Below, in pieces: positions 1,905 through 31,027 of a DNA stretch of 32,000 nucleotides. The position numbers were made by a program, and so were the translations under genes. The stretch is from Staphylothermus marinus F1 (lineage in GTDB: Archaea > Thermoproteota > Thermoprotei_A > Sulfolobales > Desulfurococcaceae). Numbering within the stretch: position 1 is the stretch's first letter; the number at the start of each line of letters is the position of its first letter. The notes below the pieces were generated by a model that saw nothing but the letters and a program-made list of their open reading frames with translations, had not been told where the DNA came from and did no database searches. Location of the stretch: assembly GCF_000015945.1 (NCBI RefSeq), contig NC_009033.1:990001-1022000 (forward strand). Direction: 5' to 3'.

Positions 1905-1908
1905 TAAA

Positions 1909-1936
1909 CAATACTTTCACAATACTCACCAATACT
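1909..1936. repeat. Three direct CAATACT repeats phased at 11 and 10 bp
   Basis: CAATACT occurs at 1909-1915, 1920-1926 and 1930-1936. These lie between the stop of the glycoprotein gene and the RBS of the next gene. Confidence 0.7.
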
Positions 1937-1950
1937 TAAACGGGTTCTTC

Positions 1951-1961
1951 ACATTAAAGGG
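1951..1961 (+). promoter_or_regulatory. Translation-initiation context ACATTAAAGGG (copy 1), containing the SD-like GGGTGA
   Basis: Exact 11-mer lying 20 nt upstream of the TTG start at 1971. The same 11-mer recurs at 2261-2271. Confidence 0.5.
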
Positions 1962-1970
1962 TGAAGTATT

Positions 1971-2237
1971 TTGACAGACATTATAGGATTTATCCAAGAC
2001 ATAATAGTGAACATAACTATTGTTGCTTGGATAGTTTTCTTCCTAACATGGGTTATAGGTTGGGCTATAAAAGGAGCCCCCATCCCATTTATGAGGGTTA
2101 AGAAGACAGGGGAGAGACTAATAGAGGACGCAGTATGGGCAGCTTTCTGGCTGGCTATGGGAACAACGGTATTTGCATTAATAGCCTATATTGCGAATAC
2201 ATTTTATCAACCCTTACCAGAGCCGCCGACTATTTAG
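1971..2237 (+). CDS. Small two-TM helical-hairpin membrane protein, VirB2/CedA1-like pilin candidate
   Basis: 88 aa with a TTG start preceded by GGGTGA. Two long hydrophobic helices (IVNITIVAWIVFFLTWVIGWAI and AVWAAFWLAMGTTVFALIAYIA) are joined by a basic loop (RVKKTGER). It is first in the order small-TM / polytopic / small-TM / VirB4-like ATPase. Confidence 0.5.
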   Translation: MTDIIGFIQDIIVNITIVAWIVFFLTWVIGWAIKGAPIPFMRVKKTGERLIEDAVWAAFWLAMGTTVFALIAYIANTFYQPLPEPPTI

Positions 2238-2260
2238 CTAAATAGAGAACTTAATGTAGA

Positions 2261-2271
2261 ACATTAAAGGG
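2261..2271 (+). promoter_or_regulatory. Translation-initiation context ACATTAAAGGG (copy 2)
   Basis: Exact repeat of 1951-1961, lying 19 nt upstream of the ATG at 2280. Confidence 0.5.
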
Positions 2272-2279
2272 GTTATTTC

Positions 2280-3656
2280 ATGGAACTACTAGTGATAGCG
2301 TTTTACTTATCTGTCCTATCCTATTACATAGGAGTTCTCATATACATGTTACCTCTACCATTTTATGGCTTAAAGAAATGGGCTCCGCAACTAATGGTTG
2401 ATGGTGTATTCTCAGCTATTCTAGTATTCTCATATACTTTCATTTTATGGCTAATAGATTACCTTGGAGAAGCTCTGGGGTCGGATTGGAACAGCTATTA
2501 TTCATGGTTTATAAACGAGATAAACATTATAGCTACAACTATTCTCATGCTGAAACTTATAGGTATCGGGCTATCCAGTATTGGTTTAGGATTTATTGCT
2601 AACTCTATGATTTCACCTCTTGTCTCAAGTTTAACTTATCTATTAATGTTTCTAGTTACGACATCAATACTAATAACCGCACTAGTAACATTAGCTCCAA
2701 CAATATTATCCCTAGGAATACTATTACATTCAGTTCCTTTTAGAATAACTAGGAGCAGTGGAGCTATGCTTATCTCGTTAGTAATAGTATTCAGTATAGG
2801 AACACCGTTAATGCCTAACTTTATAGATACAATTTCTCCACCAACTATTCTAGGAGTTAGTAGTGAAGGATTTGTTTTTGCAGAAATACATGTTTATGGA
2901 CACAACAATGTTGGTGTTTCTTATTGTTTATATGAAATATATAGTTTAGACGATAAGCTCCTAGCTAGGTATAGATCTGATCCTGACGGATTAATTAATG
3001 CATCAACTGTTGAAACAGGCATACCATATAGTGTGCAGAAAATTAAAATAGATGTTGCAGGTTATCATTATGAAACCATAATTGATCCTAGAGAATATTC
3101 TTCAAGAGGGGGAATAGTCAATATCACGATTACAATTAATAATCTATTAGTAATTAAACCTCTGAGATACATAGTATTAATGAATTATAATAACTTCAGC
3201 CTCCTCTACATAGATGATTCACTAACAATTCTCAATATTAATGCTACAGAAAATACATCGATAATAATTATTGGTTTAGGAAGTGACAGCTTCTCTGTAT
3301 CAGTAGATAATGTTCAAATAGAGCCTATCACTACATATTCTTATGAATGGGGCGGAATAGAGTTTCAAGCTGAAAAATATAGTTTATCCAGCGGAAACCA
3401 CTCAGTAGTGATTACATACACTTTATCCGGAACAGGTGAACCATTATTCGATGAAATATATTATGGAAGAAATACTTTAGGTATAGGAATGAACGATCTA
3501 ACTAACCTGGTTTACCCAATAACGATATTAATCTATAAACTATTCTTGGGACCAGTAATTTATTTATCAATTCTATTTTCAGCATCCCTAGCACTAGCTA
3601 AACTATTAGGTGGCTCATCTTCACGAATAGCCCGTATCGTGGTGACCGGGTTATGA
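2280..3656 (+). CDS. Polytopic membrane protein with a large beta-rich extracytoplasmic insert, VirB6/CedA-like candidate
   Basis: 458 aa. About 6 hydrophobic helices fall in residues 1-185 and one or two more at the C-terminus (PITILIYKLFLGPVIYLSILFSASLALA). Residues ~190-400 are non-hydrophobic, N/I/Y/S-rich and carry sequons (NAS, NIT, NFS, NAT, NTS, NHS). Its stop overlaps the next start (ATGA at 3653-3656). Confidence 0.5.
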   Translation: MELLVIAFYLSVLSYYIGVLIYMLPLPFYGLKKWAPQLMVDGVFSAILVFSYTFILWLIDYLGEALGSDWNSYYSWFINEINIIATTILMLKLIGIGLSSIGLGFIANSMISPLVSSLTYLLMFLVTTSILITALVTLAPTILSLGILLHSVPFRITRSSGAMLISLVIVFSIGTPLMPNFIDTISPPTILGVSSEGFVFAEIHVYGHNNVGVSYCLYEIYSLDDKLLARYRSDPDGLINASTVETGIPYSVQKIKIDVAGYHYETIIDPREYSSRGGIVNITITINNLLVIKPLRYIVLMNYNNFSLLYIDDSLTILNINATENTSIIIIGLGSDSFSVSVDNVQIEPITTYSYEWGGIEFQAEKYSLSSGNHSVVITYTLSGTGEPLFDEIYYGRNTLGIGMNDLTNLVYPITILIYKLFLGPVIYLSILFSASLALAKLLGGSSSRIARIVVTGL

Positions 3657-3823
3657 GTATAGCAGAGAAAATAATTTGGATAATGATAGTTTTATTCCCA
3701 ATACTTATTGTAATGTTGCTTGGTTCCCGCATTATAGGTGTTATATTATTATTGACTGTACCAATAATCGTTCTAAGAACTATTCTATGGTGGTATAATG
3801 AAAAAAATAGCAAAAATATTTGA
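3653..3823 (+). CDS. Unlisted 56-aa two-TM membrane protein (CedA2-like position)
   Basis: Hand translation gives MSIAEKIIWIMIVLFPILIVMLLGSRIIGVILLLTVPIIVLRTILWWYNEKNSKNI*. The ATG overlaps the upstream stop (ATGA). The 3' end overlaps the ATPase start by 26 nt. It is below the ORF-track size cut-off. The 71-aa minus-strand ORF 3598-3813 is its antisense shadow. Confidence 0.55.
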   Translation: MSIAEKIIWIMIVLFPILIVMLLGSRIIGVILLLTVPIIVLRTILWWYNEKNSKNI

Positions 3824-5471
3824 AAAAATAATAGGTGGAAAAGTAGAGTACAAAATAGATCCTCCAGACCTAATAGTATTAATGCGGGGAAGAGTAAATC
3901 TTATTAGATATCTTATAGCCGAAGAAGTTGATTATGGTATTAAAGAATTAAGTCCCGATAAAATGTTAATAATGATAAATATGTTTTCCGAACTATTAGA
4001 TGTATTACCTCCTTATTCAGAAGCTAAGATCATTAAAAGAAGAATGAGTATTGAAAAGCTTCTCAGAAAGATCAGCAATGAAATGATGAACCTACGTGCA
4101 ACATTGGATATAGTAGAAGAACCACATATTAAGAGACGAGCAGAAGTTAAACTGAAAATCTTAGAAGCACTCTACGAAAATATCGTTAGAAGTAAACCGA
4201 TTACTCGTGTTAACTTAGTCATTAAAATACGTGTTACCTCGAATAATATAAGCAATGCTAAACATTTAGCGGATGTTTACTCTAGTAAGACAATAGGAAT
4301 AATGCAAAATTACTTTGGAATTAAGATGAGAATGGTTAATCGAAGAAAGGAATTAATGGATATCCTGAAAAACGAACTAGGATTGTCCATTGAGACCAAT
4401 ATTAAATCAATAATAGTAGATAGCGAAAGATTATCAACAATGATGCCTTTACCCAAAAATAAAAAGCCTACAATGGAGAAAGAGGATGGTTTACCTATAG
4501 GAATAGATATTGAGACTGGATGGCCGGTAATAATACCTTATAAGTCATTTGATAAACACATTCTAATATTAGGCCCAACAGGTCGTGGTAAAACAACTCT
4601 TCTCGCATCAATGATCGAGGGTATAACTAGTTTGTCAAATATTCTAGTTTTCGCTATTGATTTTAAAGGAGACTTAGCAAATATGGTTTATAGTGAAAAC
4701 GTAGTGCATCTAACTCCTGACGATTACCCGATCAATATTCTTGTTATACCAAGCTTTTTCCAAGTTATTGATTGGTATTTAGCTGTTAGTGATGTATTAT
4801 CTAATGTTATAGGCGTTGATAAAGAGAATTTTATTAGAGTAATGAATAAGTTTGCAAACAATCATCAAGCAATAGATGGAAAAGACATATTATTTGATAA
4901 AGATTTATCATTATTATCTCCTTTAATAGAACTTATTACAAGTAAGCCTAAATATGAAGCATTAATGAAACATCTGAATAATCACATAGTTTTCGATCTA
5001 GGAAAATATGGAACAGCTTTCCAAAATGCTTATGGTGGAATTCTTATGTACATATATAAAAAACTAGCCTTCTCAACAAAGATGATCAGTAAACCTAAAC
5101 TTTTAATTGTAGATGAAGCTTGGAGAATAAGTCGTCTAAATGGTCTCGAAGAACTTGTTAAGGAGGGCCGTAGTAAGCATTTAGGAGTCGTTCTAGCAAC
5201 TCAGAATCCTAGAGATATACCAAGAGAAATAATGGAAAATACTCATTTACTCATAATGTTTGGTTCGAGAAACGAGGATTACTTGAGAGATGCAGAGAGA
5301 TTTCTAGGATTGCCTCGAGAAATTGTTAAAAAGCTTGCTTATCTTGGTGTGGGCGAAGCACTTCTTCTAAACGCTCTAGATCCTCATCCGGTTATTCTAC
5401 GTGTTAGAACACCAACATTTATGAGAGAAAAATATAAACATATTATAAGCGATGATGAAAGGCGGGCTTAA
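3798..5471 (+). CDS. VirB4/TrbE/CedB-like (FtsK-HerA superfamily) transport ATPase
   Basis: 557 aa. Walker A is LILGPTGRGKTTLL, Walker B is KLLIVDEAWR, and a downstream VLATQNPRDIP motif is typical of VirB4/HerA-type P-loop NTPases. The ~230-aa N-terminal domain is helical and has no TM segment. Confidence 0.7.
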   Translation: MKKIAKIFEKIIGGKVEYKIDPPDLIVLMRGRVNLIRYLIAEEVDYGIKELSPDKMLIMINMFSELLDVLPPYSEAKIIKRRMSIEKLLRKISNEMMNLRATLDIVEEPHIKRRAEVKLKILEALYENIVRSKPITRVNLVIKIRVTSNNISNAKHLADVYSSKTIGIMQNYFGIKMRMVNRRKELMDILKNELGLSIETNIKSIIVDSERLSTMMPLPKNKKPTMEKEDGLPIGIDIETGWPVIIPYKSFDKHILILGPTGRGKTTLLASMIEGITSLSNILVFAIDFKGDLANMVYSENVVHLTPDDYPINILVIPSFFQVIDWYLAVSDVLSNVIGVDKENFIRVMNKFANNHQAIDGKDILFDKDLSLLSPLIELITSKPKYEALMKHLNNHIVFDLGKYGTAFQNAYGGILMYIYKKLAFSTKMISKPKLLIVDEAWRISRLNGLEELVKEGRSKHLGVVLATQNPRDIPREIMENTHLLIMFGSRNEDYLRDAERFLGLPREIVKKLAYLGVGEALLLNALDPHPVILRVRTPTFMREKYKHIISDDERRA

Positions 5472-5522
5472 TCGATACTGGGATGAGATATGCGGTCGTA
5501 TCTGAGCATGATCAAGCTCTAA

Positions 5523-5531
5523 TTTTAAATA
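5523..5531 (+). promoter_or_regulatory. Candidate archaeal TATA box (TTTTAAATA)
   Basis: Matches the TTTAWATA consensus in the 150-nt gap after the ATPase gene. A second TATA-like CTAATAATA lies at ~5566-5574, closer to the ATG at 5625. Confidence 0.35.
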
Positions 5532-5624
5532 GAAAATACTGGGAACGATTTTATCCCGAAAATCTAATAATACTGGAACAATCCAATACTCTATGAGAAC
5601 TGAATAAGTAGAGAGGTGAGAAAT

Positions 5625-5735
5625 ATGGGTGGAAGACAAAAAACAAGTTTGTTTATGACAAAGGAGAAAGTGACTGAGAGAATGGCTCGGGAAGCTAGGG
5701 AGAAAACAAAAGCTAAAGGTAAGAAGCGTAGATGA
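5625..5735 (+). CDS. Unlisted 36-aa highly basic protein
   Basis: Sequence is MGGRQKTSLFMTKEKVTERMAREAREKTKAKGKKRR*. GAGAGGTGAG lies 5 nt upstream of the ATG. The stop overlaps the next start (ATGA at 5732-5735). Confidence 0.45.
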   Translation: MGGRQKTSLFMTKEKVTERMAREAREKTKAKGKKRR

Positions 5736-6571
5736 AGACTTCTAGGAAAATTCTCGTTGCATTACCAACAAGTATTTTAAGTACCGAATCAAGCCTTCTC
5801 CTTAAAACCATTAAAACATATCAGGTCATCAGGTACTCCTCTATTTTTGGCGTATCAGAAATAGTATTCTTCCGCGACCCCTTCACAGATTTTTCTCAAC
5901 ATAGGAAATATTCTGTCTTAATAGAGAAAATATGGCGATACCTATTAACCCCTCCTTATCTGCGAAGAAAACTTATTCCTAAAGATCCGGACCTAAAATT
6001 TGTAGGATTATTGCCGCCACTGAGACTTAGTACTTTCGATGTGAGCCGTAATGGTCGTGTTGGGGAGAAGAGATTAGGTCTTATCTATAGGGAGAAAAAC
6101 AAGTTGTTGGCTGATATAGGGCTTCCTAGACCTTATAGGATAGAAGCTGGAAATTGTAAGCCAGGCGATATAGGGTATGTTGAAATAGTTGATGTTAATA
6201 CTAGGAGAGCAATATGTTTAGATGTAGAACCATATAGGGGCCCTATTCTTGCGTTTGCGGATAGTTTACAAGAAGTATTAGAAGAATATAGGAAAACGGT
6301 AGATCTCATAATCGCTACTAGCAAGTATGGGAAAATCCCAAGTCATAAAGAATTAGCAGGTGTTAAAGGGAAGACAATAATAATATTATTCGGGGGTCCG
6401 CATAGAGGATTATACGATATAGCTAAGAAGGAAGGGTTTATTCTGGAGAATAAAGTTGATAAAGTATGGAATACCATACCTGAGCAAATGGTTAAAACTA
6501 TAAGGAGCGAGGAAGCATTAATATCTACACTAGCAGTAGTTAACATGTTTATTTATGGAGAGAACTTATAA
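5732..6571 (+). CDS. SPOUT-class (DUF171/COG2106-type) putative RNA methyltransferase
   Basis: N-terminal LVALPTSILSTESSLLLKTIKTYQVIRYSSIFGVSEIVFF and C-terminal NTIPEQMVKTIRSEEALISTLAVVN resemble the DUF171 family. From memory, a member (MTH1) also sits directly upstream of rpl3 in Methanothermobacter. Confidence 0.65.
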   Translation: MKTSRKILVALPTSILSTESSLLLKTIKTYQVIRYSSIFGVSEIVFFRDPFTDFSQHRKYSVLIEKIWRYLLTPPYLRRKLIPKDPDLKFVGLLPPLRLSTFDVSRNGRVGEKRLGLIYREKNKLLADIGLPRPYRIEAGNCKPGDIGYVEIVDVNTRRAICLDVEPYRGPILAFADSLQEVLEEYRKTVDLIIATSKYGKIPSHKELAGVKGKTIIILFGGPHRGLYDIAKKEGFILENKVDKVWNTIPEQMVKTIRSEEALISTLAVVNMFIYGENL

Positions 6572-6615
6572 TACCCTATGTAATGTATGTATGCAGAGAT
6601 TAGCAGGTGAAGATA

Positions 6616-7803
6616 ATGGGGCATAGAAAATATAGTGCGCCACGACATGGCAGTTTAGGAGTTAGACCTAGGAAACGGGCTGCTAAAATAGTGCCTAGAA
6701 TAAGAAGTTGGCCTACACAGTCATGGTTTGATTTATTAGTTGAGAAACTGGGAGATGAAGCAGTAAACAAGGGGATCGCTCCTAAACCAGTACTTCTAGG
6801 ATATGTTGCTTATAAGGCTGGAATGAGTCATGCAATAATAATTGATGATAGACCCCACACATTTACTTCTGGTAAAGAAATAGCCATTCCTGTAACAGTA
6901 CTCGATGCTCCTCCAATACTGATTCTAGGGCTACGAGGATACAAGATTCACCCAATGCATGGTCTTCTATCATTCGGCGAAGTATGGAGAAGCCCTGTGG
7001 AGGCGTTAAAGGAGCTATACGAGAAAATATATAGTGATAACCCGTTCATTAATCTTGGAGCAAAAGATATTGTGAGAAAATACTTGAAAGGATTAAGAAA
7101 GGTTAATCCAGGACTAGTAAAGCCTGAGCCACATAGTGAATATGGATTTAAATTCTTAGAAAATAATTGGAAGGAAAAACTTGAACGATTAAAAGCAGCT
7201 GAACTAGCAGATATTAGAGTAATTGCATCAACAATACCGGTATTATCCGGTATAGGTAAGAAAAAACCCGAGATAATCGAGATAAAAATTGGTGGTGGAA
7301 CACTAAGCGAAAGAATAGATTACGCCGAAAAACTCCTAGGCAACTATGTAACTGTAGATCAAGTATTTAGAGAGGGACAATTCATAGATATAATAGGTGT
7401 TACGAAAGGTAAGGGGTTCCAGGGAGTAATAAAGAGATTTGGAGTCAAAGAGCTTCCACGCTGGCATAAACATAGGAAGGGTAGTAGAAAAATTGGTTCT
7501 AGAAGCCCTGGTTTCGGCACTATGAGCGAGACTCCTCAGCCAGGACAAATGGGCTTCCATAGGAGAACAGAATATAATAAGAGGATCATAAAAATAGGCA
7601 TTAATGGATGGGAAGTAACGCCTAAAGGAGGATTCTTAGGATACGGCATAGTTTATGGACCATACATAATGCTTCATGGAAGTATTATTGGGCCTAGAAA
7701 GAGATTATTAGTATTAAGACATCCTATTAGGCCTCCTTCCTGGTATCCTCTAGAAGCTCCCCAAATAATCTATTATAGTCATGAAAGCAAACAAGGAGTC
7801 TAA
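6616..7803 (+). CDS. rpl3: 50S ribosomal protein L3 (uL3)
   Basis: N-terminus is [22 protein letters not shown]. The [22 protein letters not shown] region fits uL3. The ATG at 6616 is preferred over the track GTG at 6607 because AGGTGA (6605-6610) is the SD. Confidence 0.93.
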
Positions 7804-7818
7804 ACTGGGTGAAGAATA

Positions 7819-8634
7819 ATGCCTTGGACAATACTTATCCCATTTAAGCTTGAGAGACAAGAAACATATGTATTTAGCTCTGACGGTGAAAAAGTAGAAG
7901 AGATTACTTTACCTCCAATATTTAGTTTACCTGTTAGAAAAGACTTGATCCGGAGAGCGTTTCTATCAGCATTTACATCAATGCTTCAACCAAAAGGCAG
8001 GGACCCATTAGCTGGTAAGAGAACAACTGCTAGAAGCTGGGGTGTTGGTAGAGGATTAGCGAGAGTGCCAAGGCTACCCAATAGTAGGGCAGCATTCATA
8101 TCTTTTGCTAGAGGAGGACATGCAGCTTTTCCACCCAGACCAGATGAAAGAATACATGAGAGAATTAATAAACGTGAAAAAGCATATGCAGTAGCATCAG
8201 CAATTGCAGCTACTGCTAAAGTAGACCTTGTTAGGGGTCGTGGACACGTATTCCAACAAGATAAACTACCGGTTGTGCTTCTAGATGATGTTGAGGATAA
8301 GATTAGTAAGGCTAGAGACGCTAAAGAGCTTCTAATAAAGCTTGGCTTATGGAGCGATATTGTTAGGAGTTATGAGAGAATAAGAATTCGTGCAGGCAAA
8401 GGTAAGATGCGTGGTAGAAGATATGTTGAGCCAAGAAGCATATTGTTTGTTGTAACAAGCTATGATAAACCATTCGCTAAAGCTGTTAGAAACTTTCCAG
8501 GAGTAGATGTTGCTACACCTAATAATCTAGGCATACTGCATCTAGCACCAGGAGGTGTACCTGGTAGATTAACGGTCTTTACCCGTTCAGCCATCGAAGA
8601 TATTAGTAGAAAATATGAGGTGCGCACGTTATGA
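7819..8634 (+). CDS. rpl4: 50S ribosomal protein L4 (uL4)
   Basis: Sequence (..[29 protein letters not shown]..) and operon position fit uL4. SD GGGTGA at 7807-7812. Confidence 0.92.
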
Positions 8635-8906
8635 GCATGGATGAAGGAAGACTATATAAAATCATTATCAGACCAGTACACTCTGAGAAAGCATTAAATC
8701 TCATAGATAAAGAAAACACATTAACATTTATTGTTGATAGAAACGCGTCTAAGAAGGACATTAAAGACGCTGTTGAACTAGTATTTGGAGTGAAGGTATT
8801 AAAAGTCAGAACTCTCATAACAAGTAGAGGAGAAAAGAAGGCATATGTAAAGCTAGCTCCAGAACACCGTGCAAGCGAAATAGCTTCACAACTAGGATTA
8901 ATCTAG
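8631..8906 (+). CDS. rpl23: 50S ribosomal protein L23 (uL23)
   Basis: Contains [42 protein letters not shown] overlap with the rpl4 stop. Confidence 0.93.
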
Positions 8907-8934
8907 CATTAACATATAGGAAAGGGTGTAATGT

Positions 8935-9654
8935 ATGGGTAAAAGAATACTTCCACAAAGAATGGGTAGAGGTACACCAACATTTAGAAGCCCTAGTCAT
9001 AGAAGAGTGGGGCCAGCAAAATATCCGCCACTAAAACTAGACAGAACTATAAAGGGAAAAATAATTGATCTATTACATGATCCTGGAAGATGGGTTCCAC
9101 TAGCCAAAATAGTATTAGAGGATGGAACAACATTCCTAACACCGGCTGTTGAGGGAATGTATGTTGGACAAATAATAGAAATAGGACCAGACGCACATAT
9201 ATCCAATGGAAACATTTTACCGATCGGGAAAATACCGGAAGGAACACAAATTGCCAACATTGAGAAAAGACCTGGCGATGGAGGAAAATTCGTTAGATCA
9301 TCTGGTACATACGCATTAATAGTTGGAAGAGCAGGGACAAAGACTCAGGTTCAACTACCTAGTGGTAAAATAATAGAAGTACCAAATAATGCAAGAGCAA
9401 CAATAGGAGTAATTGCTGGAGGCGGTAGAGACGAAAAACCATTATTAAAAGCAGGGAATGCTTATCATAAATGGAAAGTTAAAGCAAAGAAATGGCCTAA
9501 AGTCAGAGGAGTAGCTATGAATGCTGTAAGCCACCCACATGGTGGAGGCAGCCATCAACACGTAGGTAAGCCGTCAACAGTTGCTAGGGAAACACCTCCA
9601 GGTAGAAAAGTCGGGCACATCGCTGCTAGAAGGACTGGTAGACGTAAAGGTTAA
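8935..9654 (+). CDS. rpl2: 50S ribosomal protein L2 (uL2)
   Basis: Contains [22 protein letters not shown] and [14 protein letters not shown]. Confidence 0.95.
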
Positions 9655-10069: not shown

Positions 10070-10987
10070 ATGTCAGAGAAAAATATAGAAGATCCTATTG
10101 TTAAAAAGGTACATGAAATCTATGGTTCGGTAATAAAGAAAAGAACCCCTATTCGAAACCCTGATTTAATGTTGAAGGTACTACGTGAAGAATATAAGCT
10201 AGTTGTTAAACCATACATAGTTTACTTAACTGTTGCAGCATTTATGAATAGTAGACCAGTCTTATATGAGGGCCCGCCTGGAACAGGCAAGACCGAGATA
10301 GGTGAAGCAATCTTAACTTTATGGAGTGGGAAATCAGCATTTATACTTCCATGTAGCGAAAACTATGATGAATATCGGGTTATAGGAGACTTTCACCCAG
10401 CAATGGCTATGGCGAAGGGATTTAACGAAGAAAGCTTTATTCCCCGCCCACTTTTAGCTGCTCTAATACTAGATACAGGAGTTCTTATAGATGAAATTAG
10501 GAGAAGCAATGAAGATTTTCAAAACTTATTACTCGACATAATAGATAAACGAAGAATAATTATTCCAGAACTTAAAAAAGTATATGTTCAAAGAGGCCAT
10601 GGATTCCAAATAATATTCACAAGTAACCCGCTGGACATAGCACAAAGTGATCTTAGCGACGCATTTCTACGAAGAGTTGTTAGAATAGAATTTAAGTATC
10701 CAACTATAGAGGAAGAAATCGAGATTATTAAGCTTAGACTTGGCGATTTAATGAATAAAATAAACGATAACTTAGTAATGAACGCCCTGAAGATCATTAG
10801 GGTTCTCAGAGAAAAAGCGATCTACAAACCGGGCACAGCTGATCTAGTTTCATGGCTAACACTTACTGCTCTCCTAGCAGAATCTAAGAAAAAGAAAAAA
10901 GCATCAATAGAAGACTTAAGAGAAGCTGGATACGCTGTACTATACAAGAACACTGAAGACGAGGAGTTACTAAATGAGGTTCTCTAG
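10070..10987 (+). CDS. MoxR/AAA_5-type AAA+ ATPase
   Basis: Walker A is LYEGPPGTGKTEIG. Walker B is VLIDEIRRSNEDFQNLLLDIID. Sensor-1 is IIFTSNPLD. The arginine region is LSDAFLRRV. Confidence 0.85.
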   Translation: MSEKNIEDPIVKKVHEIYGSVIKKRTPIRNPDLMLKVLREEYKLVVKPYIVYLTVAAFMNSRPVLYEGPPGTGKTEIGEAILTLWSGKSAFILPCSENYDEYRVIGDFHPAMAMAKGFNEESFIPRPLLAALILDTGVLIDEIRRSNEDFQNLLLDIIDKRRIIIPELKKVYVQRGHGFQIIFTSNPLDIAQSDLSDAFLRRVVRIEFKYPTIEEEIEIIKLRLGDLMNKINDNLVMNALKIIRVLREKAIYKPGTADLVSWLTLTALLAESKKKKKASIEDLREAGYAVLYKNTEDEELLNEVL

Positions 10988-12911
10988 CGAAAATAGCATG
11001 GATAATGAGAAAATCATAGAACATATTAAGAATGTTGTTTTAGAAGGTATAGAGAAATATAAAAATGTTGGACAATCTGGATCATTATCTATAGATAGAG
11101 CGGAGTTGTTTATTAAAATCTATATAACATTATCTGAACTTGTAAAAAATAGGCTTGATAAATCAGTTATTTTAGAGGAATTTTATAGATCATTTCTTCC
11201 TGAGAAAAAGTATAGACTTGTAGAAGATGAGACAAAGATATCGTATGATAGTAAAATGAGCATACTAAGAAGGATCCACGGTAAAAACAAGATAACGGTC
11301 TCCGAGATATTTCGGTATAGTGCATCCTCATCAGATATTCTAGACTATATTTGGTTAAGGAAAAACAAACTCCTACTTCGCGGACGAGACGGTAAACTAG
11401 TGATAAACAAAAGGATCTATAGTAAACAATTCGATAATGAGGCTACGAGAAATCTAGAGTTGAAAGACGTATATAAGTACCTAGATGAAATACCAAGCGT
11501 TTTATGGTCTCGCATACTCACCTCTAGTTTTCTCGAAAAAATTAATAATAATGAACTATTAGGTTTTCTATCAAAGTTTTACGGTTACAGTTCCAAGGTT
11601 AACAGGAGATTATTGAGTGAACTGCGTAGAAGACTTGCAAACGGCTGGGATCCCAACTGGTTTGAATGGAAAAAAATAAGTCGAATTATAGAAGATAAAA
11701 GTTTGAAAACAGAAAAATATATGGGACCATATAGTCTTCAATGGAGTACCCCGAAAAATCTAGATGTAAGGAAAATAATTGATGATCTAGAAAACATGCC
11801 TTTAAAAGAGAGATGGAAAATCATTTCTAAAATATATAAGAACAAAAATTTGTTAACTATACTTAAAAAGCTTGATCCCATATCTTTATCCTCAATAGGC
11901 AGTCTGAACAGAGTGCCTGATTTGAAAGACAAAATCCTTCTTGGAAAAAGTTTAGCGAACATTATTACTTACATGATTACAGGGGATGAATCATATTTAA
12001 ACTATTCAATGTATTTTGTTGAAAAAATTAATCCTGACAGCTTAGAACCCAATTTTAGACCAATATATAGATCAATAATTAGTGGTGATAAGAAGAAATT
12101 ATTATATTATCTCGGAGTAATTATGCCAATTAGTTCCGTTGAATTTATTACTGCTAAAATATGGGATATTATGAGTTCTAATACAGGAATAAACAGGGAG
12201 CAATTATTGAGAGCTATAAGGATAGGATATGAAATTTTAAAGTATACCGCATCTCTTTCTGGAACTATGTTAAGTAAACGTAAAAAGATAAGTTTTATTC
12301 GTGGACGTATGGATGTTAGGAAAACAGTTTTCAATTATTCCAGATTTAACTATAACATTGCAAAACGTGATAAGGAGAAAGAATTTAGGGTTAACACTTT
12401 AATTGATATTAGTGGTTCTATGATAAAACACTCATTATGGGCTATATTTTCACTAGCATCAATTATGCCTATCGTGAAAAACATAATCTTATTTTCAGAC
12501 AAAGTATTCATAAATAAGCCCCCGTCTTCTCTAAATCGTGGTTTAATAGTAAATTATCTTGAGAAACTATTTATTGAGGGCTTTAAAGGCTATACAAATA
12601 TTAGTTTAGCTCTTAGAACAGCTGAGAAACTATCTAAAAGTAATGATTACATCTTATTATTTAGCGACTTAGAACAAACAGTTTCAGACACAAAGCCATG
12701 GATTATTGCAGAAAAACTCATCAATAAAAACAAGGTTAATATAGTAATTTTTACACCACCATATCATGATGTCGAAACAGCTAATATGATGGAGAGAATT
12801 GGATGTATTGTTGTTAGAACTAAATCTATAAACGACATTTTTAAATGGTTTAAGAGAGGGCTAAACTTTAAAATACGGAGTAAACTTATCCATGTTAGAG
12901 GGCTGAGGTAA
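10974..12911 (+). CDS. Protein with a C-terminal von Willebrand factor A (VWA) domain and intact MIDAS; N-terminal ~430 aa unassigned
   Basis: MIDAS DxSxS is LIDISGSM, followed by the YTNISLAL threonine and LLFSDLEQT aspartate. The ATG at 10974 (GAGGAG 7 nt upstream) overlaps the ATPase gene by 14 nt. An alternative ATG lies at 10998. Confidence 0.75.
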   Translation: MRFSSENSMDNEKIIEHIKNVVLEGIEKYKNVGQSGSLSIDRAELFIKIYITLSELVKNRLDKSVILEEFYRSFLPEKKYRLVEDETKISYDSKMSILRRIHGKNKITVSEIFRYSASSSDILDYIWLRKNKLLLRGRDGKLVINKRIYSKQFDNEATRNLELKDVYKYLDEIPSVLWSRILTSSFLEKINNNELLGFLSKFYGYSSKVNRRLLSELRRRLANGWDPNWFEWKKISRIIEDKSLKTEKYMGPYSLQWSTPKNLDVRKIIDDLENMPLKERWKIISKIYKNKNLLTILKKLDPISLSSIGSLNRVPDLKDKILLGKSLANIITYMITGDESYLNYSMYFVEKINPDSLEPNFRPIYRSIISGDKKKLLYYLGVIMPISSVEFITAKIWDIMSSNTGINREQLLRAIRIGYEILKYTASLSGTMLSKRKKISFIRGRMDVRKTVFNYSRFNYNIAKRDKEKEFRVNTLIDISGSMIKHSLWAIFSLASIMPIVKNIILFSDKVFINKPPSSLNRGLIVNYLEKLFIEGFKGYTNISLALRTAEKLSKSNDYILLFSDLEQTVSDTKPWIIAEKLINKNKVNIVIFTPPYHDVETANMMERIGCIVVRTKSINDIFKWFKRGLNFKIRSKLIHVRGLR

Positions 12912-12921: not shown

Positions 12922-12961
12922 TGTTACGGAGCAGTATCTATACTAGCGAGAGGTGCTTAAT

Positions 12962-13393
12962 TTGGCGATAGAAATAGAAATACCGCCTGAATGGAAGAAG
13001 TTTAGATATAGAGGTAAGACTCTAGAAGAATTATTGAATATGCCAATGGATGAGTTCATAGGGTTACTTCCTGCTAGGCAGAGACGTAGCTTAAAACGTG
13101 GATTAACAATGGCGCAGGTGAAGTTGTTAGCTAAGATTAGAAAAGTAAGACAGAAGAAGCTTACAGGTAAAAAAGCAATTATTAAAACACATGTTCGAGA
13201 CATGATTATTCTTCCCGAAATGATTGGTTTAACTATAGCTGTCTATAATGGTAAAGAATTCATACCTGTCAGAATAGTTCCAGAGATGATCGGTCATTAT
13301 CTAGGAGAATTTAGTCCTACAACGAAGAGGGTACAGCATGGAGAACCAGGTCTAAAAGCTACTCGTAGCAGTATGTTTATATCATTAAAGTAA
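12962..13393 (+). CDS. rps19: 30S ribosomal protein S19 (uS19)
   Basis: Contains [37 protein letters not shown]. The TTG at 12962 is preferred because the track GTG at 12953 lies inside the SD AGGTG (12951-12955). Confidence 0.9.
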
Positions 13394-27185: not shown

Positions 27186-27274
27186 GCCGGGGTGCCCGAG
27201 CGGTCTAAGGGGCTGGCCTTGAGAGCCAGTGGGCCAAGGGGCCCGCGCGGGTTCGAATCCCGCCCCCGGCGCCA
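27186..27274 (+). tRNA. tRNA-Ser (anticodon UGA), long variable arm, CCA encoded
   Basis: The acceptor pairs GCCGGGG with CCCCGGC. The anticodon stem pairs CUGGC with GCCAG around loop CUUGAGA. The T arm is GCGGG-UUCGAAU-CCCGC. The discriminator is G, followed by CCA. Confidence 0.93.
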
Positions 27275-28389: not shown

Positions 28390-29721
28390 CTATATTGGTT
28401 TAGCAAATCCCCATTTTTCAAGTGCCCTTGCTAGTTCTCTATGTGTTTTCGCGTATTCATCTAATGGTATTCCTTTCAATATTGCTTCTAATGATTGTCT
28501 TACTGCCATCGCCCCTGCTCTTGGACCATCTGGGTGTCCTAGTACTCCTCCACCTATTTGTAGTACTAGTTCTGTTCCTAAAGCATCTATTACGCCTGGC
28601 AAGTTGCCTGGGTGTAGGCCTCCTGAGGACACTGGCATCGCTGGTTTTATATGGTACATTTCTTGTTCTATATGGAAAACATCGTCAGGGTCTGGTTTGA
28701 AATGTTTTTCTCTCAGTATTCTTGCGTATCTTATTACATCGATTTTTCCTCCCTCAAGTTTACCTACTCCTGCAGTCCCAATATGTAGCTGGTCTACGCC
28801 AATGATTCTGTAGAGTTTTGCTAATACATACATTGATATACCGTGGTAGGGGTTACGGGTAAAGGCTGCATGCATTGCTCTATGTGCATGAATAGCTAAG
28901 CCATATTCTTCAGCTAGATCCCTGATATATGTTAGCGTAGACCATCCAGTCACTACTACATCAACCATTACATAGGGGTTATCATAGTCTGCTACAAGTT
29001 TTAATCTCTTCTCCATTTCACGTATATCGCTGGTGATGTTTGCGAACCAAACTTTTCTCTCACCGGTTTCTTTTTCTGCTCGATCAATTGCTCTCATTAT
29101 ATGTTTAGCTCTCTCGGAGAATCTGCAAAAACTTGGACTAGTCAGGTTTTCATCGTCTTTAATATAATCCATTCCTCCCACTAGTAGTTCGTAGGCTAGT
29201 TTCTCAACCTCCTCCGGCGAATATCCTACTTTAGGTTTTGGAACAGTGCCCACTATTGGCCGATCAGTCACTCTAAAGATCTTTTTTACGCCTTCAACTC
29301 CCTTACTTGGACCTTTAAAGTATTGTAGAAACTTCTTAGGAAGATAAATATCTTCGAGACGAAGACCCTCAACTCTCTTCATTCCAAAGACGTTTCCAGC
29401 TATTGATGCTAGTAAGCCCGGCATATTTGCTTCCTCAAATAATTCAACTGGATAAGCTATTCTAACAATCCATGAACCATCACCTAGATCTTTGAAATAA
29501 TATGCTTTGCCGGATAATTTACGAACTCTTTCAGTATTATACCATGGATACAGCGTGGTCCATGTACCAGTACTGCTCTCAGCAGCTACTCCACCTGCTG
29601 CATCTTCTATTGTAAATCCTTTGGCTGGTTTAATTCTGAAAACAGCTATAATGTCATTTTCTAAATCTGGAACATAGTTTTTATCTATGTAACTATGATA
29701 AGGCTCGAATTTATGTGGCAA
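28390..29721 (-). CDS. rbcL: Ribulose-1,5-bisphosphate carboxylase/oxygenase large subunit, form III
   Basis: Contains AAGGVAAESSTGTWTTLY, GGMDYIKDDENL (carbamylated Lys region), SSGGLHPG and GGGVLGHPDG. No small-subunit gene is adjacent. Confidence 0.93.
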   Translation of the reverse strand: MPHKFEPYHSYIDKNYVPDLENDIIAVFRIKPAKGFTIEDAAGGVAAESSTGTWTTLYPWYNTERVRKLSGKAYYFKDLGDGSWIVRIAYPVELFEEANMPGLLASIAGNVFGMKRVEGLRLEDIYLPKKFLQYFKGPSKGVEGVKKIFRVTDRPIVGTVPKPKVGYSPEEVEKLAYELLVGGMDYIKDDENLTSPSFCRFSERAKHIMRAIDRAEKETGERKVWFANITSDIREMEKRLKLVADYDNPYVMVDVVVTGWSTLTYIRDLAEEYGLAIHAHRAMHAAFTRNPYHGISMYVLAKLYRIIGVDQLHIGTAGVGKLEGGKIDVIRYARILREKHFKPDPDDVFHIEQEMYHIKPAMPVSSGGLHPGNLPGVIDALGTELVLQIGGGVLGHPDGPRAGAMAVRQSLEAILKGIPLDEYAKTHRELARALEKWGFAKPI

Positions 29722-30953: not shown

Positions 30954-31027
30954 TGCCGCCGCGGGGATTTGAACCCCGGACAACCCGGTCTTCAGCCGGG
31001 CGCTCTCCCAGGCTGAGCTACGGCGGC
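30954..31027 (-). tRNA. tRNA-Phe (anticodon GAA), CCA not encoded
   Basis: The reverse complement is GCCGCCGUAGCUCAGCCUGGGAGAGCGCCCGGCUGAAGACCGGGUUGUCCGGGGUUCAAAUCCCCGCGGCGGCA. It folds as a cloverleaf with anticodon loop CUGAAGA. Confidence 0.94.

Follow-up and report, generated by a model that had tools for sequence, protein, structure and literature searches.

A Ced-type gene cluster beside the ribosomal-protein genes on the chromosome of Staphylothermus marinus F1

We analysed a stretch of 32,000 nucleotides (nt) from the chromosome of Staphylothermus marinus F1 (NC_009033.1, positions 990,001–1,022,000), hereafter the window, in which four adjacent genes occupy positions 1971–5471. These genes very probably constitute a chromosomal Ced (crenarchaeal exchange of DNA) cluster, in which cedA1, cedA, a cedA2-like gene, and cedB would specify a CedA1 pilus and a DNA-import machine. 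Three of the encoded proteins are members of Ced families, the cluster is orthologous to that of Aeropyrum, and its context is chromosomal and non-mobile. By analogy with the systems of Sulfolobales, the S. marinus Ced system would import DNA.

The four open reading frames (ORFs) lie on the plus strand and encode 88, 458, 56, and 557 amino acids. The first two ORFs lie 42 nt apart, the second and third overlap by 4 nt, and the third and fourth overlap by 26 nt, which agrees with the four tightly coupled genes described in the initial annotation. Orthologues are kept in 56 genomes, indicating that these are real genes and not chance ORFs. The exact sequences of all four proteins are public as S. 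marinus F1 proteins. RefSeq names the 88-residue protein 'DNA import protein CedA1', the 458-residue protein 'hypothetical protein', and the 557-residue protein 'helicase HerA-like domain-containing protein'. The features of the region, in window coordinates, are as follows.

1905–1970, plus strand: intergenic leader 5′ of cedA1, presumed promoter region, read from the sequence
1971–2237, plus strand: cedA1, 88-residue pilin, TTG start (Smar_1011, WP_011839300)
2280–3656, plus strand: cedA, 458-residue polytopic membrane protein, presumed channel or assembly platform (Smar_1012)
2280–2470, plus strand: N-terminal hairpin of CedA, residues ~1–63, homologue of the CedA1 pilin
2838–3479, plus strand: ectodomain of CedA, residues ~187–400, two β-sandwich subdomains with six N-X-S/T sequons
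3653–3823, plus strand: cedA2-like gene, 56-residue hairpin protein with two transmembrane (TM) segments (WP_169696941), overlapping the cedA stop and the cedB start
3798–5471, plus strand: cedB, 557-residue ATPase of the FtsK/HerA/VirB4 superfamily with a CedB-type N-terminal domain (Smar_1013)

The CedA1 pilin and the CedA membrane protein

The 88-residue protein scores 122.4 bits against the NCBIfam equivalog model Ced_CedA1 (NF041797) and passes its cutoff of 100. In addition, residues 2–77 match the cryo-electron microscopy structure of the Aeropyrum pernix CedA1 pilin (PDB 8DFU; phmmer E = 1.6e-24) at about 50% identity, and PF27251 'CedA1' is among the precomputed family matches of the gene. 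The CedA1 pilus of A. pernix has been solved and is homologous to the conjugative pili of type IV secretion systems (T4SSs), with a VirB2-like subunit (Beltran et al. 2023, PMC9905601). Hydropathy analysis places two hydrophobic segments (residues ~3–36 and 54–75) on either side of a basic loop. The protein has no signal peptide and starts at the mature N-terminus, as does the pilin in 8DFU. Both hydropathy and homology to the solved pilin bear out the VirB2-like two-helix hairpin with a basic loop proposed in the initial annotation. The match to 8DFU is stronger evidence for such a hairpin than any model, because the homology of 8DFU itself to conjugative pili is established (PMC9905601).

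The top NCBIfam family of the 458-residue protein is Ced_CedA (E = 3.1e-41, 141.7 bits), with residues 2–186 aligned on model positions 6–192; the paralogue CedE ranks second (E = 1.6e-28). CedA is also the best-matching family of all 27 orthologues tested. Hydropathy analysis shows about seven hydrophobic segments, so the description of this protein as polytopic holds. In the AlphaFold2 model (predicted local distance difference test score, pLDDT, 86.6), a helical membrane region (residues 1–185) is followed by two β-sandwich subdomains (residues 198–381) and a long C-terminal helix (residues 408–442).

The N-terminus of CedA is itself related to the pilin. The NCBIfam CedA1 model matches CedA residues 2–63 (E = 2e-4), the CedA family profile matches the 8DFU pilin over columns 5–69 (E = 1.5e-9), and PF27251 'CedA1' is recorded on the cedA gene as well. 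A pilin-like N-terminus of CedA has already been reported (PMC9905601).

The C-terminal helix of CedA matches positions 216–254 of the Ced_CedA model. Therefore, about 200 residues are inserted relative to the Sulfolobales CedA model of 259 positions. The insert, which we refer to as the ectodomain, is present in each of the 27 aligned CedA orthologues. Its predicted strands have pLDDT values above 90, and it matches no NCBIfam or Pfam family. Foldseek returns weak matches to Ig-like, CnaB, and transthyretin-like folds, as well as to Gram-positive pilin domains and SlaB. The first β-sandwich also gives a marginal match (E = 2e-3, ~65 residues) to Saci_0406, the 'thread' subunit of Sulfolobus acidocaldarius (7PNB, 8RZL).

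The CedB ATPase

The 557-residue translation contains GPTGRGKTT, IVDEAW, and ATQNP, the motifs named in the initial annotation. The motif columns (G259–T266, D439, W442, Q469, and P471) are invariant or nearly so among 38 orthologues; the Walker A and B motifs do not vary. Among NCBIfam families, CedB scores highest (E = 3.2e-32, 111.9 bits), with residues 33–537 aligned on positions 72–587 of the 590-position model. The protein scores 45 bits against CedD, 30 against VirB4, 29 against TrbE, and 25–29 against the HerA models, and weak matches to the TraC and TraD models are obtained as well. CedB is the best or most widely shared NCBIfam family in all 38 orthologues.

The N-terminal domain also points to CedB. 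We compared the ATPase family with bona fide CedB and CedD-like proteins by profile alignment (hhalign). An exhaustive hidden Markov model (HMM) search recovered proteins that pass the CedB cutoff (P0213, 890 bits; P0223, 764 bits) and CedD-like proteins of related lineages (P0254 and P0267); a word-indexed profile search did not reach the named Sulfolobales CedB, which the exhaustive search did. The ATPase family aligns with bona fide Sulfolobales CedB over 484 columns from column 42 (E = 2.8e-48). As the alignment starts at column 42, the N-terminal domain is common to both. The alignment with the CedD-like proteins spans 308 columns from column 229 and covers the ATPase core only, and the HerA and VirB4/TrbE models likewise match the core only. 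CedB and CedD have been reported to differ in exactly the N-terminal domain (PMC11868833).

The ATPase could instead be a HerA-type helicase of DNA repair or defence, standing next to unrelated membrane proteins. The Pfam families HerA_C and DUF87 score above their thresholds, and RefSeq names the protein as a HerA-like helicase. In Foldseek searches with the AlphaFold2 model (pLDDT 82.9), S. solfataricus HerA (4D2I) and TrwK/VirB4 of plasmid R388 are the joint top matches (E ~1e-16); these confirm the superfamily and no more. However, the HerA equivalog models give 25–29 bits (HerA_Thermprot, 25) where their cutoffs are 800, and the N-terminal domain aligns with CedB and not with HerA or CedD. 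In addition, no NurA, Mre11, Rad50, Sir2, or other HerA partner is encoded within ~10 kb, and the ATPase gene overlaps the upstream ORF and is universally syntenic with the pilin gene and cedA. We therefore consider a HerA-type helicase highly improbable. According to the initial annotation, an ATPase that grouped with NurA-associated HerA or plasmid TrbE would refute the Ced reading; the scores (HerA 25, TrbE 29, CedB 112 bits) and the lack of a close plasmid homologue, described below, speak against such a grouping.

Conserved gene order and chromosomal setting

We scanned one genome per species for synteny, using the CedA1 alignment as the anchor. The scan yielded 56 loci from Staphylothermus, Thermogladius, other Desulfurococcaceae, Pyrodictiaceae, Hyperthermus, Thermodiscus, Acidilobaceae, Caldisphaera, and Aeropyrum. 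The order cedA1, cedA (~450–490 residues), ATPase gene is found in 48 of the 48 loci that reach the ATPase gene, including that of an Aeropyrum metagenome-assembled genome (MAG), so the synteny of the ATPase gene with the membrane-protein genes extends to related genomes. In every locus that holds both, cedA adjoins cedA1. Bona fide Sulfolobales cedB genes stand alone, away from cedA. The linked cedA1–cedA–cedB arrangement is the non-Sulfolobales form.

The small gene between cedA and cedB is real but lineage-restricted. Its 56-residue product has a continuous hydrophobic stretch over residues 1–49, in which two segments are resolved in the orthologues, consistent with the two-TM protein first predicted. 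Among 43 loci containing both cedA and the ATPase gene, 19 have an ORF of 49–68 residues with two hydrophobic segments at the same position. The small ORF overlaps the ATPase start, and identity among its copies is very low. All 19 loci are of the Desulfurococcaceae or Pyrodictiaceae type; Acidilobaceae, Aeropyrum, Thermodiscus, and Caldisphaera, in which cedA directly adjoins cedB, do not have the ORF. The 56-residue family shows no homology to the CedA1 family (hhalign probability 0.6%), and the protein matches no Pfam family and no VirB3 at E values up to 10. The initial annotation had read the cluster as CedA1–CedA–CedA2–CedB. Family scores uphold CedA1, CedA, and CedB, and the name 'cedA2-like' reflects position and two-TM architecture only. 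CedA2 has been reported as not conserved between species (PMC9905601). The position of the gene just 5′ of a VirB4-like gene recalls virB3, which, by way of speculation, might point to a similar part.

The cluster lies beside the ribosomal-protein genes. Including the flanking ~10 kb at either end, the S. marinus genes are, in order, a PAPS reductase gene (minus strand), the tetrabrachion gene, genes for proteins of 109 and 685 residues, the ced cluster itself, a gene for a SPOUT RNA methyltransferase, L3–L4–L23–L2, a MoxR–VWA pair, and S19 onward. In 45 of the 48 loci that contain the ATPase gene, the ced genes are on the same strand as ribosomal-protein genes and no more than 5 kb away from them (41 of 44 among loci with more than 800 nt of downstream sequence). 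In 16 loci, the methyltransferase and L3 genes follow cedB by 190–524 nt (~200–250 nt in all but one), as in the window; the pair is 1–1.7 kb away in 6 loci and 4.7–4.8 kb downstream in 2 more. In the Staphylothermus/Thermogladius group, cedB is followed by the methyltransferase gene, L3, L4, L23, and L2 (window 5472–9654). In another 23 loci, rpl2 starts within −122 to +63 nt of the cedB stop (L027–L051, for example L038, 13050–13769); they come from Aeropyrum, Acidilobaceae, Thermodiscus, Caldisphaera, Hyperthermus, and Pyrodictiaceae. In 13 of these 23, the methyltransferase and/or L3 genes are upstream of the cluster, with L3, where seen, on the opposite strand. The conserved position beside the ribosomal-protein genes points to an old, vertically inherited chromosomal system. 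It hints at a long-held location where the operon breaks, and perhaps at co-expression.

This setting also bears on whether the cluster is the remnant of an integrated conjugative plasmid or integrative and conjugative element, with a minimal VirB2/VirB6/VirB4 apparatus that exports the mobile element. The ATPase fold matches R388 TrwK/VirB4 as well as it matches HerA, the TrbE, TraC, and TraD models give weak matches, and archaeal conjugative plasmids likewise lack recognisable relaxases (PMC9905601). However, genomes of several orders hold the cluster at the same chromosomal position beside the ribosomal superoperon. As the initial annotation had observed, there is no integrase, relaxase, or coupling protein (VirD4), and this holds for ~10 kb on either side of the cluster; a flanking tRNA gene is absent from the same interval. 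Apart from CedB, the window encodes a single ATPase, a MoxR-type AAA_5 protein (10070–10987) that is unrelated. In a tblastn search of 72,556 plasmids with the ATPase, the best matches have at most 27% identity over at most 55–56% of the protein, with higher values only in short stretches. In addition, the TrbE and VirB4 scores are ~30 bits compared with 112 for CedB. A plasmid remnant is therefore very unlikely, and we retain the assignment to a chromosomal Ced cluster.

The leader of cedA1 has a GGTGA ribosome-binding-type motif 8 nt 5′ of the TTG start, and its string acattaaaggg is repeated before cedA at 2262–2272. On the basis of the sequence, a promoter may be presumed at 1905–1970. A scan for bacterial-type promoters and terminators, which is uninformative for archaea, gave results no better than those for shuffled sequence. 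The ultraviolet (UV)-promoter hexanucleotide of Sulfolobus, A(N)TTTC, occurs as ACTTTC near 1911. We give this occurrence no weight: the motif is missing from the ced promoters of Sulfolobus itself (PMC5817253), and chance alone would yield a degenerate 6-mer of this kind.

Upstream of the cluster, the ORF listed at 189–1904 extends as an open frame back to window position 3 and represents the 3′ portion of the gene for the 685-residue protein. This protein is Asn-rich, with 25 N-X-S/T sequons in the 634 residues encoded within the window, and it has no Pfam or PDB match. Its N-terminus, M(F)KGL[ST]xYPVFLL..., resembles by eye a class III (prepilin-type) signal sequence. In S. marinus, its gene is preceded by the 109-residue gene and by that of the S-layer protein tetrabrachion (1524 residues, PF11401; L062, 969–8107). 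Only S. marinus, L003, and L009 have these three genes together on the upstream side of cedA1; L011 has matches to tetrabrachion and the 685-residue protein, and an ORF of 106 residues occupies the slot of the 109-residue gene. In the other Desulfurococcaceae, the PAPS reductase gene is directly upstream of cedA1. We ruled out the 685-residue gene as a member of the ced module; it co-occurs with the tetrabrachion S-layer gene and not with ced.

A gene for an Lhr-type DNA helicase lies near the ced cluster among loci L001–L024 and L027, about 2 kb upstream of cedA1 (for example L004, 4810–7626; L027, 6116–8899). The two that were checked, L004 and L027, have the domains DEAD, DEAD_assoc, and WH_Lhr. 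In most Desulfurococcaceae loci, ORFs of 612–1037 residues, some cut by contig ends, hold the helicase position, and a PAPS reductase gene on the opposite strand intervenes before cedA1. In Hyperthermus (L027), the helicase gene is directly upstream of ced, at a distance of 86 nt. The proximity of the helicase may reflect a link to DNA repair or mere synteny.

Downstream, the genes for the MoxR-type AAA_5 ATPase (305 residues) and a VWA protein (645 residues) occupy 10070–12911, between L2 (8935–9654) and S19 (12953–13393). At least the AAA_5 gene directly follows L2 in L004, L006, L009, L013, L015, L017, L019, and L024, and S19 directly follows L2 in L011, L016, and L027. The far end of the window holds tRNA-Ser(TGA) (27186–27274, plus strand), a form III RuBisCO large-subunit gene (28390–29721, minus strand), and tRNA-Phe(GAA) (30954–31027, minus strand), all unrelated to ced.

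Proposed function and relation to known DNA-transfer systems

According to the mechanism that we propose, CedA1 subunits would be drawn out of the membrane and assemble, together with lipids, into a hollow, VirB2-like pilus, as in A. pernix (PMC9905601). CedA would serve as the membrane platform or channel; besides its pilin-like N-terminal hairpin, it would have some six more helices in the membrane and a glycosylated β-sandwich ectodomain. Hexameric CedB at the cytoplasmic face would power assembly and/or DNA translocation, and the 56-residue protein would be an accessory membrane subunit. The machine would move chromosomal DNA between cells, with the Ced-bearing cell as the recipient, in the service of repair by recombination (PMC11868833, PMC11823120). 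Ced would be a domesticated, vertically inherited T4SS derivative and not a mobile element.

Several points weigh against this interpretation. The CedB score of 111.9 bits is far below the NCBI equivalog cutoff of 700, and the CedA score of 141.7 bits is far below the cutoff of 330. None of the orthologues tested reaches the cutoffs either: the best E values, 6e-52 for CedB and 5e-49 for CedA, correspond to roughly 165–177 bits, and the Aeropyrum copies fall short as well. Since every non-Sulfolobales orthologue tested is below the cutoffs, the shortfall reflects models trained on Sulfolobales and not the S. marinus genome. An equivalog cutoff is an annotation threshold and no defining feature of Ced membership. 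A neighbour-joining tree of 63 ATPases over 507 columns (CedB, CedB-like, CedD-like, and bacterial DUF87 members) was saturated, left the clades unresolved, and nested the bacterial outgroup in the ingroup; it was not used. Neither Foldseek nor a PDB profile search gave a VirB6 match for CedA, and the VirB6-like character ascribed to it in the initial annotation rests on published HHpred results for TedA (PMC9905601). In addition, the genetic evidence for import and the evidence for induction by DNA damage come from Sulfolobales alone (PMC11868833, PMC11823120). The direction of transfer is likewise known from Sulfolobales only, and the function of the S. marinus system would follow by analogy. 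A UV trigger is unlikely in S. marinus because the organism is an anaerobe from marine vents.

These functional points raise the question of whether a genuine Ced-type pilus has another role here, as a constitutive adhesion or cell-contact pilus or in bidirectional or export DNA transfer. A. pernix made CedA1 pili with no UV treatment described (PMC9905601), and CedA1 and CedE affect export too in Saccharolobus islandicus (PMC11868833). Growth-linked expression is suggested by the neighbouring ribosomal-protein genes, which in many genomes directly follow the cluster, and the large CedA ectodomain is missing from the Sulfolobales model. However, genetics in Sulfolobales has shown the orthologues of all core components to be needed for import, and evidence for another function was not found in the present analysis. 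We regard a role other than damage-induced import as unlikely, though appreciably less so than a plasmid remnant or a HerA-type helicase. With a similarly low probability, Ced outside Sulfolobales might be growth-coupled or constitutive, with the CedA ectodomain in the surface-recognition or S-layer-spanning role of Ups pili and the 56-residue protein as a VirB3-like adaptor. The preferred interpretation is still a Ced cluster for DNA import, and it can be compared with four known systems.

Like the S. marinus cluster, A. pernix Ced has a pilin without a signal peptide and is chromosomal, beside ribosomal-protein genes, and the Aeropyrum MAG has the same order of cedA1, cedA (455 residues, with the ectodomain), and cedB. 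Unlike S. marinus, Aeropyrum and Acidilobaceae have no small two-TM gene between cedA and cedB, and their cedB is followed directly by rpl2 and not by the SPOUT methyltransferase and L3 genes. The Aeropyrum and S. marinus ATPases are only ~23% identical.

The Sulfolobales systems (S. acidocaldarius Saci_0567–Saci_0569 and Saci_0748; Sa. islandicus) share the CedA1, CedA, and CedB families with S. marinus, and their import has been shown genetically. Small two-TM genes flank cedA in Sulfolobales, too. In contrast, the Sulfolobales CedA model has no ~200-residue ectodomain, and Sulfolobales cedB is separate from cedA. Sulfolobales Ced uses Ups pili and UV induction. CedD and CedE count as further partners of a Ced system, with genes outside the cluster.

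Bacterial T4SSs (VirB2, VirB6, VirB3/VirB4) resemble the cluster in the fold of the ATPase (R388 TrwK/VirB4, E ~5e-16), in the structurally VirB2-like pilin family (PMC9905601), and in a small membrane-protein gene just 5′ of the ATPase gene, as virB3 precedes virB4. Unlike a bacterial T4SS, the S. marinus locus (~10 kb on each side) has no relaxase, VirD4, VirB7–VirB10 core, or VirB11. Furthermore, Ced is chromosomal and not on a mobile element, its presumed direction of transfer is opposite, the 56-residue protein has no detectable similarity to VirB3, and the sequence and fold searches with CedA gave no VirB6 match.

The Ted system of Thermoproteales (TedC/TedA/TedB) likewise consists of a pilin, a polytopic membrane protein, and a VirB4-like ATPase (PMC9905601). 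However, no similarity between Ted and Ced components can be recognised at the sequence level, and TedC is made with a Sec signal peptide that is cleaved off (PMC9905601), whereas the S. marinus proteins match the Ced models and the CedA1 structure directly.

A Ced cluster is a known kind of system, and its S. marinus pilin is already named in RefSeq. As cited in PMC11823120, van Wolferen (2016) reported ced genes in Desulfurococcales and Acidilobales. We found no mention of Staphylothermus or of Smar_ loci in the literature and supplements searched. The assignment mainly improves annotation, as RefSeq names the pilin only; CedA is left 'hypothetical' and CedB 'HerA-like' because the NCBI models are tuned to Sulfolobales. 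Modest additions concern the ectodomain of CedA, the lineages in which the small gene occurs, and the linkage to the ribosomal operon across orders.

In archaea, Ced corresponds to the conjugation machinery of bacteria, domesticated on the chromosome, and it may allow hyperthermophiles to mend their genomes with DNA taken up from neighbours. The CedA ectodomain, the small-gene distribution, and the ribosomal linkage could guide work on Ced in species without Ups pili.

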